A stretch of 64,000 nt of DNA. Origin: Escherichia phage EC1-UPM. The position numbers were made by a program, and so were the translations under genes. How positions within the stretch are numbered: the stretch's first letter is position 1; each line of letters starts with the position of its first letter. The stretch lies in the sequence record NC_041906.1. One strand, written 5' to 3'. The notes under the pieces are model-generated. The model was given only the letters and a program-made list of their open reading frames with translations. It was not told where the DNA came from and made no database searches. This document shows positions 22,638 to 28,020 of the stretch, piece by piece.

Positions 22638-25217
22638 ATGCGTTACATCACCTCTCAGGATACTGGTAAGTATCCTATTGCTATCCTCGGTCATCAAATC
22701 CGAAGGGAGGAGATGATTAAAACCTACCTGCTGCCTAATGACCTAAGCATGGAAGATTTCATCTTCATTGAGCTTCATTCTGCTCCAGGCAAGAAGAAGA
22801 CTCCTGCAAGGGAGATTAAGGAGTTTATTCAGCAGGAATTGCAACAGGTACTGGATGATGCAGAGACTCAGTACATCATTTGTACTGATTCTGATTACTT
22901 CAAAATACTGACTAAAGAAGCTAAAGCAGAGGCTAACCTCGGCTATGTTTGTGACTCAGTATGGGGTAAGCAGAAGGTTATCTATACACCTAGCTACAGG
23001 CAGGTCTTTTATGACCCTCCTGTAGTGAAAGCTAAGATTGCTCAGGGTATGGATGCATTACTTAACCACATTCGTGGGCAGTATGCTGAACCAGGTCATG
23101 GAATCATTGAGTTTGAAGCCTATCCGGATACTCCAGAGAAGATTAAAGCCTGGCTAGACCAGTTGCTTGAGATGGATAAGCCACTGGCTATAGACATCGA
23201 AGCATTCGGTTTAAAGCACTATAACGCCGGTATAGGAACAATTACGTTCTGTTGGAGTAAGACACAGGGCATAGCCTTTAATGTGGACTACGAGCCAATT
23301 CCAGGAGCTACTGAAGCACCATACGGGCGTATCAACAGAAATGATATTGTTCGTAATCTTCTACGTGAGTTCTTCATTAAGTACACCCAACGGCAGATGT
23401 ATCACAACATTAGCTATGACGTGTATGTGCTTATCTATCAGTTATTCATGGATAACCTGATTGATACAGAAGGCTTACTGCATGGCATGGAAATCATGCT
23501 ACGTAATTGGGATTGCACTAAGTTAATCACCTATCTGGCTACTAACAGTTGTGCTGGTAATCACCTTAGTCTGAAAGACCAGGCCCAGGAGTATGCCGGT
23601 AACTATGCTCAGGATGATATTAAAGACATTCGCCTTATTCCTAATGAGCAGCTGTTACGTTACAACCTCATTGACGGTTTGTGTACGTGGTACACCTACG
23701 AAAAGCACTGGGATACTCTCATTGCTGATGACCAGCTAGATGTTTACAACAGCATCTTTAAGCCAGCTTGTGAAGACATCATTCAGATGCAGTTAACAGG
23801 TATGCCCATGAATATGGATACCGTTAACCAAGTGGCTAAGGAGATGGAAACTGACAGGAACCTGGCTCTGAAAACTATTCGTGAGTCCAAGCTCATGAAG
23901 AACTTCACCCTGATGCTTCGTCAGGAATGGGTAGACGATAAGAATGCTAAGCTCAAGAAGAAACAAGTAACACTTGCTGACTGTGACATCGAGTTTAACC
24001 CTAACTCCGGTCCACAACTACAAAAACTGTTATTTGATTATATTGGCTTACCGGTTCTTGGTCTTACTAAGAGCAAGCAGCCTGCTACTGATGGTGACAC
24101 TATTAAAGCACTGCGTACTCATACGCAGAGCGAAGATGTTAAGGAACTGCTCAATGCACTTATCGATTATAAGCTTGTGGATAAGATTATCACTAGCTTC
24201 ATCCCGGCCTTTAGAAATGCCCAACCTGGGCCGGATGGATGGCACTACCTATTCGGCAACCTCAATCTGGGGGGAACGGTTTCTGGTAGATTATCTGCCT
24301 CTGAACCAAACCTGCAAACCATTCCGTCTGGTTCCAAATACGCCAAGAAGATTAAGAAATGCTTCGAAGCACCACCAGGTTGGGTCTTTTGTGGATTGGA
24401 CTTTGCAAGCCTTGAAGACCGTATCTCTGCATTAACTACTAAAGACCCTCAGAAGCTTAAGGTATATACCGATGGCTATGATGGGCATAGTCTCCGTGCA
24501 TATGCTTACTTTGGTGAGCAGATGCCAGACATAGAAGACACGGTAGAATCCATTAACTCCATTCAGCATAAGTACAAATCATTACGTAGTGACTCGAAGG
24601 CTCCAACCTTCCTGCTTACCTATGGTGGTACGTATATGGGCTTAATGAAAAACTGTGGCTTCTCTGAAGAGAAGGCTAAGACTACAGAGAAACGTTATCA
24701 CGATCTCTATGTAGTTAGTGACAGATGGGTTCAGGCTAAGCTAGACGAAGCTGCCAAAACTGGTTATGTTACTGCCGCATTCGGTTTGAGAGTGCGTACT
24801 CCTTTACTGGCTCAGGTTTTACGTGGGACATGTAAGACTCCGTATGAGGCAGAAGCAGAAGGCAGAACTGCTGGTAATGCTTTAGGGCAAAGCTGGTGTC
24901 TACTGAATAACCGTGCTGGTTCAGAATTTATGCGTAAAGTCAGAGCCAGTGAGTTCAGGTTAGATATACGTCCTAGTATTCATATTCATGATGCTCAGTA
25001 CTTCATGATTCGTGACAACATGGATACCTTGCAGTTCACAAACAAGCACTTGGTTGAAGCCGTTAACTGGCAAGACCATCCTGATATTGCTCATCCAGAA
25101 GTTGGTTTGGGTGGGGAACTATCCTTGTTCTACCCAACGTGGGCTAACGAGATTGAGATTCCAAATCACGCTACCCCAGAAGAAGTTCATCAAATAATTC
25201 AAAAGGCATTCGCATGA
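22638..25217 (+). CDS. family A DNA polymerase with 3'-5' exonuclease domain (N4 gp39-like)
   Basis: Exo motif LAIDIEAFG; pol motif A DFASLEDRI, motif B RSDSKAPTFLLTYGG, motif C HIHDAQ. Confidence 0.85.
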   Translation: MRYITSQDTGKYPIAILGHQIRREEMIKTYLLPNDLSMEDFIFIELHSAPGKKKTPAREIKEFIQQELQQVLDDAETQYIICTDSDYFKILTKEAKAEANLGYVCDSVWGKQKVIYTPSYRQVFYDPPVVKAKIAQGMDALLNHIRGQYAEPGHGIIEFEAYPDTPEKIKAWLDQLLEMDKPLAIDIEAFGLKHYNAGIGTITFCWSKTQGIAFNVDYEPIPGATEAPYGRINRNDIVRNLLREFFIKYTQRQMYHNISYDVYVLIYQLFMDNLIDTEGLLHGMEIMLRNWDCTKLITYLATNSCAGNHLSLKDQAQEYAGNYAQDDIKDIRLIPNEQLLRYNLIDGLCTWYTYEKHWDTLIADDQLDVYNSIFKPACEDIIQMQLTGMPMNMDTVNQVAKEMETDRNLALKTIRESKLMKNFTLMLRQEWVDDKNAKLKKKQVTLADCDIEFNPNSGPQLQKLLFDYIGLPVLGLTKSKQPATDGDTIKALRTHTQSEDVKELLNALIDYKLVDKIITSFIPAFRNAQPGPDGWHYLFGNLNLGGTVSGRLSASEPNLQTIPSGSKYAKKIKKCFEAPPGWVFCGLDFASLEDRISALTTKDPQKLKVYTDGYDGHSLRAYAYFGEQMPDIEDTVESINSIQHKYKSLRSDSKAPTFLLTYGGTYMGLMKNCGFSEEKAKTTEKRYHDLYVVSDRWVQAKLDEAAKTGYVTAAFGLRVRTPLLAQVLRGTCKTPYEAEAEGRTAGNALGQSWCLLNNRAGSEFMRKVRASEFRLDIRPSIHIHDAQYFMIRDNMDTLQFTNKHLVEAVNWQDHPDIAHPEVGLGGELSLFYPTWANEIEIPNHATPEEVHQIIQKAFA

Positions 25218-25519
25218 CCAAAAGTACTAAAGAAACTGTAGTCAGAAAATATCATTGGATGGTAGCAGCACAAGTAGTCTTCCAGCTTCCTAAAGTGGAT
25301 GATGGTTCCCTGCTTACCATGAACACAATGTTGCTCACCGATGAACCTTATGTGACCTATAAAGATTTGGCCCGTGCCAATCATTCCCTGAAGATTAGTC
25401 TGGACCAACGTTTCGACACTTCAGTTGACCTGAAAGACATTGTTTATCTGTCTCTTAGCAACCTGGGTCTGATGTCTGAACCAGAGTTCCAGGCAAACAT
25501 GATTCCTAAGGATAAATAA
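25214..25519 (+). CDS. hypothetical protein (101 aa)
   Basis: ORF, ATGA overlap with polymerase gene. Confidence 0.45.
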   Translation: MTKSTKETVVRKYHWMVAAQVVFQLPKVDDGSLLTMNTMLLTDEPYVTYKDLARANHSLKISLDQRFDTSVDLKDIVYLSLSNLGLMSEPEFQANMIPKDK

Positions 25520-25995
25520 TGGCTAAGCTCTCCGGTGGATTGAATAACTGGTATGTAGTGCCAGTTAAGCACCCTCAACGGAAAGAGCAAGAGCCATATC
25601 AAGCAGAGTGTGAGGATATTATCCAAGCACTGGGCATGACCTTCGATGAAGGTTGTGCCTTTAAAGCTCTGTGGCGAAATGCTGCTGCCCGTATGGGTAA
25701 TGGTAAACCTGGTAATACTGCTGCTTACGATGCAGAGAAGCTGGTTCATTATGCTAATCGTATTCTTGCTAAGGAGAAGTTAGCTAGTGAGTTATTTCCG
25801 GATCCTGCTACGAATGTAAATACCGTTGGTAGTTATTGGCACCATACACGCAATGGTAAACCTCACTTCACTAAAGAATTTTCATTCATTGAGATTGTTT
25901 ATAAAGATGAACGAGATGAAATTTACTCGTATAACTTCAATCAGCTAAGTGAAATTAAGTGGAACTGGGTTCACAGATACAGGATTACTTACTAA
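25519..25995 (+). CDS. hypothetical protein (158 aa)
   Basis: ORF with AGGA RBS. Confidence 0.45.
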   Translation: MAKLSGGLNNWYVVPVKHPQRKEQEPYQAECEDIIQALGMTFDEGCAFKALWRNAAARMGNGKPGNTAAYDAEKLVHYANRILAKEKLASELFPDPATNVNTVGSYWHHTRNGKPHFTKEFSFIEIVYKDERDEIYSYNFNQLSEIKWNWVHRYRITY

Positions 25996-26057
25996 TGAAG
26001 ATAACCAACAATCATGATGTCTCACTGGCTCTGGCTGTATGGCTATTGCATGGGTAA
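25995..26057 (+). pseudogene. 20-codon remnant duplicating the N-terminus of the nuclease gene at 26558
   Basis: Encodes MKITNNHDVSLALAVWLLHG*; 16/17 residues identical to start of ORF 26558 but 12/17 codons differ synonymously. Confidence 0.5.
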
Positions 26058-26063
26058 CTAGTT

Positions 26064-26561
26064 ATGAAACATAGAATTGCCCATGACAGGCTTTTACAGC
26101 TTGTATATTACGACCCTATTTCCGGGATTTTTACTCGTAGGAATACTGGAAAGGTATCCGGTTATCTAATGAAGAGTGGCTACATTCAACTCCGTGTGGA
26201 TAGCGTGTTGTACTATGGGCATATTCTTGCATGGTTCTATGTACATGGCGTATGGCCTACAGATAGGATTGACCATAAGGACAATATTCGCCATCACAAC
26301 TGGATAGATAACCTCAGAGAAGCAACCCACATGCAGAATAACCAGAGTGCTGTTCTATCTAAAGCGAACACATCTGGTTTCAAGGGAGTATCCTTTTCAA
26401 AGAAATTAGGTAAATACAGAGCAACTATTTGGGTTAATAGCAAACCGATCTCATTAGGTTTCACGGATAACCCAAGAGAAGCTGCTCTTCTTTATGATGA
26501 GGCTGCTGTAATTCATTATGGTGAATTTGCCAAAACCAATAAACAATTAGGTCTGCTATGA
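26064..26561 (+). mobile_element. HNH homing endonuclease with AP2-like DNA-binding domain (copy 1)
   Basis: IDHKDNIRHHNWIDNLREAT HNH motif; C-terminal GFKGVS...W AP2-like; inserted between gene-start remnant and intact nuclease gene. Confidence 0.7.
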
Positions 26562-27535
26562 AACTTACTAACAATCACGACGTTAGTCTCGCACTTGCCG
26601 TATGGCTTGTAACAGATGATTATGATTACGTAGACAATCCTAAGTATCTGTCTGTTACTACATTGCTTAAGCCCATTAAGCAAATCGTCATGAAGCATCG
26701 TGTAGACCTCAGTGACCAGTCTATTGATGTTATGGATTTCGTCTCTACATCAATGGGTACTGGCTTACATGATTCTATCGAGAAAGCCTGGAAGCTGGGG
26801 CATAAGACTGCATTGAAGAAGCTAGGATATCCTCAGCGTGTAATTGATGCAGTAGTCATTAACCCAACCAAAGCAGACTTTGATGCTAACCCTGACCTTA
26901 TCCCTATCTACATTGAGCAACGTGGAACCAGGGTGGTTAAGGGTTGGACTATCGGTGGTAAGTTCGACATCGTAACAGAAGGTCTGTTGCAGGACTTTAA
27001 GTCTACCTCAACCTATTCCTGGGTTGCTGGTTCCCGTGATGATGAACACAAGATGCAAGGTAGCTTGTATCGTTGGATTCACAACGACATCATTACTGAG
27101 GATGTAATTCGTATTAACTACATCTTCACTGACTTCATGAAACACATGGCTAATAGCAATCCGAACTATCCTGCTAATCGTATTATGCATAAGGATATTC
27201 CGTTGCTATCTGTCGAGAAGACTGAACGTTGGGTGGAAGAGAAGATTCACCTCATTGAGAAGTACTGGAATGCACCTGAAGAGGAAATTCCTGAATGTAC
27301 TGACGAGGAGTTGTGGCGAACAGAGCCACAGTTCAAATACTTCTCTGATGCTTCTAAGGTAGATGTACCTGGAGCCAGAAGTACCAAAAACTTTGACGAT
27401 ATGGCATCTGCCCGTATCTTCATGGCTGAAAAAGGTGGCAAGGGTGCTATCAAGGTCGTGGAGGGGCAGGTTAAGCGTTGTCTGTATTGCCCTGTCGCGT
27501 CCATTTGTGAACAGAGGAAACGATATTACCCATGA
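26558..27535 (+). CDS. PD-(D/E)XK-family nuclease with C-terminal Cys cluster (Cas4/RecB-like exonuclease)
   Basis: C-terminal CTDEE...C-x2-C-x5-C Fe-S-like cysteines; replication-module position. Confidence 0.5.
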   Translation: MKLTNNHDVSLALAVWLVTDDYDYVDNPKYLSVTTLLKPIKQIVMKHRVDLSDQSIDVMDFVSTSMGTGLHDSIEKAWKLGHKTALKKLGYPQRVIDAVVINPTKADFDANPDLIPIYIEQRGTRVVKGWTIGGKFDIVTEGLLQDFKSTSTYSWVAGSRDDEHKMQGSLYRWIHNDIITEDVIRINYIFTDFMKHMANSNPNYPANRIMHKDIPLLSVEKTERWVEEKIHLIEKYWNAPEEEIPECTDEELWRTEPQFKYFSDASKVDVPGARSTKNFDDMASARIFMAEKGGKGAIKVVEGQVKRCLYCPVASICEQRKRYYP

Positions 27536-28020
27536 AATTAATACCAATCGAGGTGTACCAACAAGCAGCTCTTGAGTTGTCTTACGACCCAGCCTCCCGT
27601 AGTTGTATACGGAAAAATGGTAAGGAAGTTGGAACCCTCGATGGTAGTGGTTACTGGTTAGTACGAGTAGGTAAGGGCAAAGGGACCTTACTAAAATGCC
27701 ACCGAGTAGTATGGTTCTTACATCATGGAACCATGCCACCCCTCATAGAACACAAAGACAGAAATCCGTCGAATAACCTTATTACTAATTTAAGGGAAGC
27801 GACTGAATCGCAGAACAGATGTAATACATCTAAGCATTGTGATAATACGTCTGGTGCTAAAGGTGTTTTCTGGTGCAAGTCCACCTCTAAGTGGATGGTT
27901 AAAGTCTGCGTTAACTATAAAACTTATTGGGGAGGCCGACACGCCGACCTGGAAACTGCAATCGCAGTAGCAACCGAATTACGAAATAAACTTCACGGAG
28001 AGTATGTAAACCATGATTGA
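27532..28020 (+). mobile_element. HNH homing endonuclease with AP2-like domain (copy 2, paralog of 26064)
   Basis: IEHKDRNPSNNLITNLREAT HNH motif; SGAKGVFW AP2-like; same architecture as copy 1. Confidence 0.7.

Follow-up and report, generated by a model that had tools for sequence, protein, structure and literature searches.

Probable HNH-AP2 homing cassettes with recoded flanks at both ends of the gp42 exonuclease gene of Escherichia phage EC1-UPM

The free-standing homing endonuclease genes (HEGs) of T4-like phages, such as those for SegF, SegG and MobE, are known for intron-less homing and marker exclusion; to our knowledge, they are either intergenic or divide a gene so that it yields two functional polypeptides. 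I-HmuI of Bacillus phage SPO1, a nicking enzyme encoded by a group I intron, binds DNA through NUMOD and helix-turn-helix modules. Here we analysed a 64,000-nucleotide (nt) stretch of Escherichia phage EC1-UPM (NC_041906.1; the window), in which two genes of homing-endonuclease type, HEG1 and HEG2, flank gp42, the gene for an N4 gp42-like exonuclease. We think it likely that the locus consists of two independently acquired, site-specific homing cassettes of the HNH (I-HmuI-like) and AP2 type, one at each end of gp42 and both with recoded flanks.

With the T4-like HEGs the locus shares a free-standing nuclease gene beside an essential, conserved one, polymorphism for presence or absence, and short co-converted flanks, but HEG1 lies inside an open reading frame (ORF) and restores the gene by a replacement 5′ end, and the Seg proteins are GIY-YIG enzymes. 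The HNH-AP2 family of homing endonucleases has been described before (Magnani et al. 2004, as cited in PMC10448857). HEG1 and HEG2 have the N-terminal HNH and C-terminal AP2 domains of this family, which is widespread in phages, and of the 'IPA-HNH' HEGs of phage ICP1, and by architecture they are ordinary. Earlier work also counts HEGs among the loci that vary between G7C-like phages (bioRxiv 10.1101/542787). HEG1 has 93% protein identity to G7C gp41.1, and HEG2 has 96-97% DNA identity to U1G gp54 (annotated as an HNH homing endonuclease) and to the PGN829.1 copy, each in the same place as in the window. Among the records and contigs found, HEG1 and HEG2 occur together in the window only. As elements they are of a known type, and each gene has been annotated by itself in relatives; what is new is their combination.

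The closest precedent for the HEG1 cassette comes from fungal mitochondria, where mobile endonuclease ORFs (mORFs) give rise to 'gene hybrids' in Allomyces macrogynus atp6 and in Glomus atp6, atp9, cox2 and nad3 (PMC3630166). There, the mORF is associated with a foreign C-terminal duplicate of atp6, atp9, cox2 or nad3, and the native C-terminus is left as a remnant (PMC3630166). The HEG1 cassette has all three parts, namely an endonuclease ORF in a conserved gene, a diverged, largely synonymous duplicate of the gene terminus and a nearby unused, near-native remnant, and is an analogue rather than a homologue. The phage case is an N-terminal mirror image with the remnant upstream, its enzyme is HNH-AP2 instead of LAGLIDADG or GIY-YIG, and the phage locus also shows several independent repeat-loss products. 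We lean slightly towards regarding the cassette as a phage 'gene-end replacement' mobile element, intron-less and self-immune through its recoded codons 1-21, for which the repeats would serve as an exit route to HEG-free, presumably resistant alleles. Neither the 5′-end replacement structure of gp41.1 nor a phage 5′-end duplication with a free-standing HEG was found in the open-access literature, which is weak evidence of novelty.

The HEG1 site and the 5′ end of gp42

The window belongs to a Gamaleyavirus (G7C-like, N4-like coliphage, Schitoviridae), and the genes of the locus were named by comparison with the annotated G7C record. A first-pass annotation, made from the letters of the window, had pointed out two plus-strand ORFs (26064-26561 and 27532-28020), their ATGA overlaps with the gene between them and their HNH and AP2 motifs, all of which we confirmed. 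It had also taken both genes to be free-standing beside the middle gene. This holds for HEG2, at the gp42/gp43 junction, but not for HEG1: comparison of alleles places HEG1 not in an intergenic position but after codon 21 of the ancestral gp42 ORF, together with a recoded copy of the gp42 5′ end. The features of the site are:

25995-26057, plus strand: remnant of the native gp42 5′ end, a 20-codon mini-ORF (MKITNNHDVSLALAVWLLHG, then stop); upstream arm of an imperfect direct repeat
26058-26063, plus strand: 6-nt spacer, CTAGTT, from the remnant stop codon to the HEG1 start codon
26064-26561, plus strand: HEG1, HNH_3 and AP2 homing-endonuclease gene, 165 amino acids (aa), homologue of G7C gp41.1
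26558-26620, plus strand: recoded replacement of gp42 codons 1-21 (MKLTNNHDVSLALAVWLVTDD), on the HEG1 cassette; downstream arm of the repeat
26558-27535, plus strand: gp42-like PD-(D/E)XK exonuclease gene, 325 aa, with a HEG1-linked N-terminus and a HEG2-linked C-terminus (ICEQRKRYYP, then stop)
Occupied upstream junction: remnant followed by TAACTAGTT
Occupied downstream junction: recoded copy followed by TATGATTAC

In HEG-less phages the empty site reads ...CATGACGAG directly joined to TATGATTAC...; their gp42 5′ end runs from ATGAAGATAACC to this junction and encodes MKITNNHDVSLALAVWLLHDE followed by YDYV, and its ATG overlaps the gp41 stop codon. In every carrier, the native first 63 nt stand directly 3′ of gp41; after these come a TAA codon, a few bases, the ORF of HEG1 and a second set of codons 1-21, which overlaps the HEG1 stop codon (ATGA) and continues into the gp42 body as MKLTNNHDVSLALAVWLVTDD and then YDYV. 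The upstream copy is near-native, differing at 3 of 57 nt from a HEG-less relative and showing 95-100% identity to various HEG-less phages; its length of 20 codons in the window results from a 3-nt deletion common to 24-32N. The downstream copy differs from the remnant at 20 positions in 57-63 nt (~32%), mostly synonymously, and the synonymous divergence (pS) of the recoded 63 nt is ~0.8, whereas elsewhere in gp42 it is 0.16-0.27 within the genus. In all carriers this copy keeps its ATG, an intact frame and 17/21 identical residues. The recoded segment is strictly tied to the HEG1 cassette, as expected of a co-converted flank: the gp42 N-terminus has LVTDD or LLHDE according to the presence of HEG1 (eight relatives compared, plus the window), and the HEG1-linked divergence stops at nt 63 of gp42. 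The block that receives the insertion, gp42 residues 13-24, has a conservation of 0.90 across 86 diverse homologues, against a mean of 0.71, and is the joint top 12-residue block.

A repeat finder returned the remnant and the recoded copy as the longest direct repeat of the region, and since they flank the HEG1 ORF they might be read as the target-site duplication of a transposon-like insertion instead of a foreign replacement. We consider this very improbable, because the repeats are 32% diverged while the upstream copy is ~95-100% native, because a pS of ~0.8 lies far above that of the remaining gene, and because one structure is common to all carriers. A transposon or insertion sequence was also rejected as an element class, given this divergence and the lack of a transposase among Pfam matches.

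Alternatively, HEG1 could reside in a group I intron or an intein-type insertion, gp42 being spliced from a 20-codon 'exon 1' to codon 22 and the recoded copy being incidental. The upstream fragment does preserve intact, in-frame, near-native codons 1-20, and 'intron' is the label that some annotators give to HEG insertions in the DNA polymerase gene of related phages. However, the ~570-nt insert is nearly all HEG1 ORF and recoded codons, with ~6-9 nt non-coding; the remnant closes with a conserved in-frame TAA; and the recoded copy retains a start codon, frame and protein sequence in all carriers, so we give splicing hardly any credence. An Rfam scan of 25000-29000 gave no match at E ≤ 1. With no Rfam match, an insert almost wholly coding and a gp42 that has its own ATG, the locus was not classed as a group I intron-encoded HEG, and with a remnant ending in TAA, a HEG1 with its own start and stop codons and no Hint domain in Pfam, it was not classed as an intein.

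In some HEG1-less genomes the gp42 5′ end is chimeric, native at the start and recoded toward codon 21. At least four crossover classes were seen: at ~nt 10-26 in Klebsiella phage K57alpha1.2 and Gamaleyavirus NAN33P5; at ~nt 7-26 in the two Logan contigs L014 and L016, where gp42 starts with GTG; at ~nt 31-36 in L015 and L030; and at ~nt 43-50 in L029. The alignments suggest that these chimeras are the expected products of recombination between the two diverged repeats with deletion of HEG1, and the several crossover classes imply that HEG1 was lost repeatedly, in several events. A 13-nt recoded patch common to all chimeras was considered as a sign of selection for resistance and rejected, since any crossover between the repeats keeps the 3′-most recoded bases. 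One of the chimeric contigs (L015, Logan SRR17836596, 3001-4493) combines a post-HEG1-loss gp42 5′ end with a third HEG at the gp42/gp43 junction, from which a lineage with HEGs flanking gp42 in another combination probably existed. The annotation of the K57alpha1.2 record (vB_Kpl_K57alpha1.2, OY979416.1; L026, 1-3083) is apparently out of register with the sequence, and minus-strand 'Portal protein', 'spanin' and 'endolysin' pseudogene features cover its gp41-gp42-gp43 replication region.

HEG2 and its flanks at the gp42/gp43 junction

HEG2 occupies the stop-start overlap between gp42 and the primase gene gp43, and the features of this site are:

27508-27535, plus strand: HEG2-linked left flank, the last ~28 nt of gp42, recoded and one codon shorter than native
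27532-28020, plus strand: HEG2, HNH_3 and AP2 homing-endonuclease gene, 162 aa, inserted at the gp42/gp43 stop-start overlap
28013-28093, plus strand: HEG2-linked right flank, the first ~80 nt of gp43, without the Ser2 codon (MIDLTG versus native MSIDLTG)
Empty gp42/gp43 junction: CCATCATGAGTATTGACC
HEG2-type junction without a HEG (L017 type): CCCATGATTGACC

The empty junction reads ...GATATTTTCCATCATGAGTATTGACC; gp42 ends there in ...KQRERYFPS before the stop, and gp43 starts as MSIDLTG from the ATGA overlap. In HEG2 carriers the junction reads ...GATATTACCCATGA, then HEG2, then ...AACCATGATTGACC, with gp42 ending in ...EQRKRYYP and gp43 starting as MIDLTG, each one codon shorter than native, and the form of the gp42 C-terminus follows the presence of HEG2. 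A lineage ~70% identical in gp42 has this flank type as its native junction, free of a HEG (L017 and L018, with ICEQRKRYFP before the stop and MIDLTGV), and because of this match the flanks point to an import of HEG2 from outside the genus.

The imported tract is short. The HEG2-linked gp43 alleles are shared with other carriers to ~28093, beyond which the window matches PW8/nithesis at 100% identity to the end of the 240-nt alignment. Only HEG2 carriers share the ~28 nt to the left of HEG2 and the ~80 nt to its right, the pattern of flank co-conversion. At a 100-nt scale the window is a mosaic: the backbone resembles PW8/nithesis, the HEG1 cassette resembles 24-32N (94-99% for the most part, with one 100-nt window at 89%) and the HEG2 cassette is nearest to a DRR831892 contig (99-100%). 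Such short, element-centred tracts match the product of homing with limited co-conversion. In ICP1 phages, HEGs have been described at boundaries of genetic exchange (PMC10448857). The window resembles these in that relatedness shifts at the nuclease genes, the backbone and the two cassettes each having a different closest relative, but ICP1 belongs to another phage family and has mostly other HEG families (T5orf172).

The endonucleases, their relatives and a homing route

HEG1 and HEG2 carry the motifs IDHKD...NLREAT and IEHKD...NLREAT, respectively, together with GFKGV/GAKGV. Both match Pfam HNH_3 above the gathering score of 24.8 bits (E 1.1e-8 for HEG1 and 3.1e-11 for HEG2), and both are contained in phrog_99, 'HNH endonuclease' (E 5e-58 and 2e-54). 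Residues H71, N83 and N92 of HEG1 are invariant among 49 family members, and their HEG2 equivalents, read off the sequence, are H74, N85 and N94; the two proteins thus have the catalytic His and conserved Asn of the HNH motif, as well as a separate DNA-binding module (AP2), as do HNH_3/I-HmuI-like homing endonucleases. A structure model was built for HEG1 with AlphaFold2 from an alignment of the 49 family members (pLDDT 95.4), and the HEG2 AP2 domain rests on a Pfam match and an alignment. The top PDB fold match of the model was I-HmuI (1u3e; E 8e-4, 101 columns, 24% sequence identity), and its C-terminal domain superposes on the AP2 domain of AtERF1 (1gcc) at 1.6 Å over 57 residues with 33% identity. 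A PDB sequence search with HEG1 returned a weak AP2 match alone (WRI1, E 0.029), and I-HmuI was found via the fold search only. The likeness to I-HmuI covers the N-terminal two-thirds of HEG1 and extends to a common Pfam family, HNH_3; I-HmuI differs in being encoded by a group I intron, whereas HEG1 and HEG2 are intron-less with a C-terminal AP2 domain.

The two proteins are 42% identical across 115 aa (BLASTP E 9e-20) and 35% identical globally, and a profile of the HEG family found HEG1 and HEG2 only in the 64-kb window. The proposal that both genes are of the HNH-AP2 homing-endonuclease type was therefore borne out by Pfam HNH_3, the AP2 fold and phrog_99, and the pairwise alignment and the residues listed above agree with its further points that the proteins are related and retain the HNH catalytic residues.

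The comparison with related genomes called for by the first-pass annotation shows that both genes are optional among close relatives, with presence or absence at a fixed genomic site and identical junctions across ~78 related phage records. The HEG1 cassette is found in G7C (gp41.1), PW8, ECBP1, Bp4, PD38, Uz-1, Mimir124 and 24-32N, and most others are without it. HEG2 is carried only by U1G, PGN829.1 and one Logan contig, and in PhAPEC5, ZQ2, PBM-2/3, UE-M6 and Moo19 the gp42/gp43 ATGA holds a third HEG (171 aa, 54% identity to HEG1). Both sites are empty in many phages, for example nithesis, St11Ph5 and PhAPEC7. None of the ~78 related records has HEG1 and HEG2 together; exact-protein look-ups of the window gp42 and HEG1 returned no record, and the exact HEG2 protein was found in one contig, which is HEG1-less. 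In U1G (L004, 3267-3750) a 1-nt deletion (GACCTG-AAACTG) truncates the AP2 domain of HEG2, which is annotated as a 145-aa HNH endonuclease, while in PGN829.1 (L005, NC_070871.1, 3001-3489) the HEG2 ORF is intact at 162 aa and unannotated in RefSeq.

In all, tblastn matched 2888 phage records to the HEG family. HEG2 is an outlier of the HEG set, with ~35% identity to all others, and its nearest relatives (53-61%) lie at the same exonuclease/primase junction of three distant N4-like contigs of ~75 kb. Burkholderia phage vB_BpP_HN01, with a HEG 50% identical to HEG1, has a HEG-gp42-HEG arrangement, and Salmonella phage As2 has one HEG upstream of gp42. The ends of gp42 are thus recurrent, long-standing insertion sites across the family, and because both junctions recur as insertion sites in other genomes the HEG-gp42-HEG arrangement is not due to chance. 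The idea of a homing hot spot was largely right, given three HEGs in Gamaleyaviruses, the HN01 arrangement and the HEG2 relatives at the same junction in distant N4-like contigs. As a separate observation, in HN01 (L009, 2998-4981), a distantly related schitovirus whose genome is matched by HEG1 in three places with tblastn, the upstream HEG is truly intergenic, with a hairpin and a Shine-Dalgarno sequence 5′ of it, a GTG start and no gp42 remnant.

The first-pass annotation had further called the two genes paralogous, which is correct for membership of one family and not for local duplication. Tandem or segmental duplication within the genome would account for the common domain architecture and PHROG family and for the 42% identity across 115 aa. 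It would not account for a global identity of only 35%, for the closer relationship of HEG1 to the third Gamaleyavirus HEG (54%) and the HN01 HEG (50%), for that of HEG2 to the same-junction HEGs of distant N4-like contigs (53-61%), for relatives that carry either HEG alone, in both combinations, or for the separate foreign flank signature of each, and its probability appears minimal. Given a global identity of just 35% and the closer relatives that each has in other phages, HEG1 and HEG2 were acquired independently rather than by duplication in place.

From sequence, fold and population patterns we infer that HEG1 and HEG2 are nucleases that home. Guided by the I-HmuI/HNH_3 family and the T4 'intron-less homing' paradigm, we propose that, upon co-infection with a cassette-free phage, the endonuclease would nick or cut the empty allele near the insertion point, and recombinational repair would copy the cassette with a short flank from the carrier genome. 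We also infer the target position, the immunity and the expression by translational coupling. The target of HEG1 would be among the most conserved gp42 coding blocks (LAVWLLHDEYDY), with insertion after codon 21, and gp42 would survive because the cassette ends with its own ATG and heavily recoded codons 1-21, a copy that would be translationally coupled to HEG1 by the ATGA overlap. The remnant mini-ORF, coupled to gp41 via TAATG, probably serves as the left homology arm, giving uninterrupted homology up to the break, and probably hands ribosomes from gp41 on to HEG1 across the 6-nt spacer, the ATGA then passing them on to gp42. The recoded copy presumably removes HEG1's own site and renders the carrier immune, and recombination between the two diverged 63-nt repeats would offer a route of HEG1 loss that yields native/recoded chimeric gp42. 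For HEG2, located in the gp42/gp43 ATGA, the foreign flanks, each one codon shorter, should destroy its target. Resistance of carrier alleles is suggested by the sequence differences at the sites.

Several observations weigh against this interpretation. The AP2 matches of both proteins fall under the Pfam gathering score (E 1e-4 and 5e-5, 23-24 bits versus 33.3), for which the AP2 fold match of HEG1 compensates as far as the model goes. The donor of the recoded codons was sought with a degenerate WLVTDDYDYV pattern: IMG/VR gave G7C and ECBP1 only, and metagenomes gave two Gamaleyavirus-like HEG1-less chimeras only and no donor. Among the best 120 of 2210 gp42 homologues (E ≤ 1e-30), 'LVTDD' occurred in the Gamaleyavirus cluster representative only, the nearest variants being 'LVNDD' and 'LINDD' in distant lineages. 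Because the pattern scans gave Gamaleyaviruses only and no donor, codons 1-21 could conceivably have been recoded in place by accelerated change instead of arriving from a foreign source. The near-identity of the remnant to native alleles may reflect ongoing recombination with HEG-less phages rather than a function, and repair templated on the recoded copy could yield chimeras identical to those attributed to HEG1 loss. Finally, both genes are under strong purifying selection (dN/dS of 0.07-0.11 for HEG1 and ~0.06 for HEG2), which fits a domesticated function equally well.

Domestication would mean that the HNH-AP2 proteins, no longer mobile, exclude the markers of competitors, aid gp42 in replication or recombination, or act as AP2 DNA-binding regulators. 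Besides the dN/dS of 0.06-0.11, the tight translational coupling into the replication operon and the long persistence of the HEG2 clade at a single junction in divergent phages speak for it. We regard it as unlikely, since most close relatives lack one or both genes and yet are viable isolates, the U1G copy of HEG2 is frameshifted, HEG1 was lost several times, and short co-converted flanks in a PW8/nithesis-like backbone are the signature of recent homing-type transfer; exclusion of competitor markers, moreover, is mechanistically the same as homing.

Gene order around gp42 and the allele series

When bases 25200-28700 were compared with phage records, 78 matched, the top ones being vB_EcoP_PW8, ECBP1, Bp4 and G7C at 91-95% identity, and the maximum query cover by any single record was 86%. 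The neighbours of the gp42 locus are:

22638-25217: gp39, DNA polymerase, intact in the window, 859 aa
25214-25519: gp40
25519-25995, plus strand: gp41 homologue, 158 aa (G7C gp41, phrog_9919), upstream neighbour of the HEG1 site
28013-30163, plus strand: gp43-like DNA primase ('DNS protein'; PriCT_1, phrog_2135), downstream neighbour of HEG2
30220-30972: gp44, AAA ATPase

The middle gene (978 bp) was assigned as an N4 gp42-like exonuclease by phrog_2139 (E 3e-151), and its PDDEXK_1 match is weak. From gp39 to gp43 every gene is linked to the next by overlapping or abutting stop and start codons: the gp41 stop codon TAA (25993-25995) shares 1 nt with the ATG of the remnant mini-ORF, HEG1 TGA and gp42 ATG overlap as ATGA at 26558-26561, gp42 TGA and HEG2 ATG as ATGA at 27532-27535, and HEG2 and gp43 by 8 nt (ATGATTGA, 28013-28020). 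No internal sigma-70-type promoter was found: a single weak promoter-like site turned up, where chance alone would give 8.3. A terminator scan of the region gave no convincing candidate.

Other parts of the region also vary between relatives. The 3′ half of gp41 (25700-25995) is 97-99% identical to PW8 and 61-84% identical or unalignable in other relatives, while its 5′ half is 84-99% identical to all relatives compared, and PHROG matches divide the protein near residue 88. For these reasons gp41 is judged to carry a swapped C-terminal module, whose end coincides exactly with the HEG1 insertion site. In ZQ2-type phages gp41 is shortened to 94 aa and overlaps gp42. In several relatives gp39 is split by another HNH endonuclease gene (HNH_3, NUMOD1 and I-HmuI_NUMOD-like matches), as in U1G (L004, 1-1518), PGN829.1 (L005, 1-1252), PhAPEC5 (L007, 1-1069), L014 (1-2437) and the distant N4-like Logan contig from ERR14149716 (L024, 1-1723), and such insertions in the DNA polymerase gene are labelled 'intron' by some annotators of related phages. 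A similar non-spliced gp39 split is described in phage 10Gb, and in some G7C-like phages the g16 RNA polymerase gene is HEG-split (both in preprint 10.1101/542787). In Escherichia phage vB_EcoM_PD205 (L011, 1668-4107), an 'RNA polymerase' coding sequence and a misc_feature 'similar to RNA polymerase' stand on either side of an HNH-AP2 gene (168 aa, 44% identity to HEG1), an arrangement which suggests that a HEG splits the RNA polymerase gene there. Between its homologues of gp43 and gp44, a position empty in the window, the L024 contig also carries a Tad2-like gene (PF11195; 6184-6444), of a family connected with anti-Thoeris counter-defence.

Phages very commonly carry HNH-AP2 homing endonucleases, and the finding is in itself routine. 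It carries a warning for annotation and phylogeny, as, in carriers, foreign sequence makes up codons 1-21 and the final ~9 codons of gp42 as well as the opening ~27 codons of gp43, the 20-codon remnant is open to miscalling, and an intact HEG2 stands unannotated in a RefSeq record. The locus offers a natural allele series of an essential gene, comprising the empty allele, alleles with HEG1, HEG2 or the third HEG, a frameshifted HEG and at least four post-loss chimeras, and hence a convenient system in which to measure homing, immunity and loss in a non-T4 phage. Replacement of the N-terminus indicates how an intron-less element can inhabit a coding sequence without splitting the protein, and, if the gene-end replacement reading is right, invasion, loss and resistance, as stages of the homing cycle, can all be seen at this one Gamaleyavirus locus.

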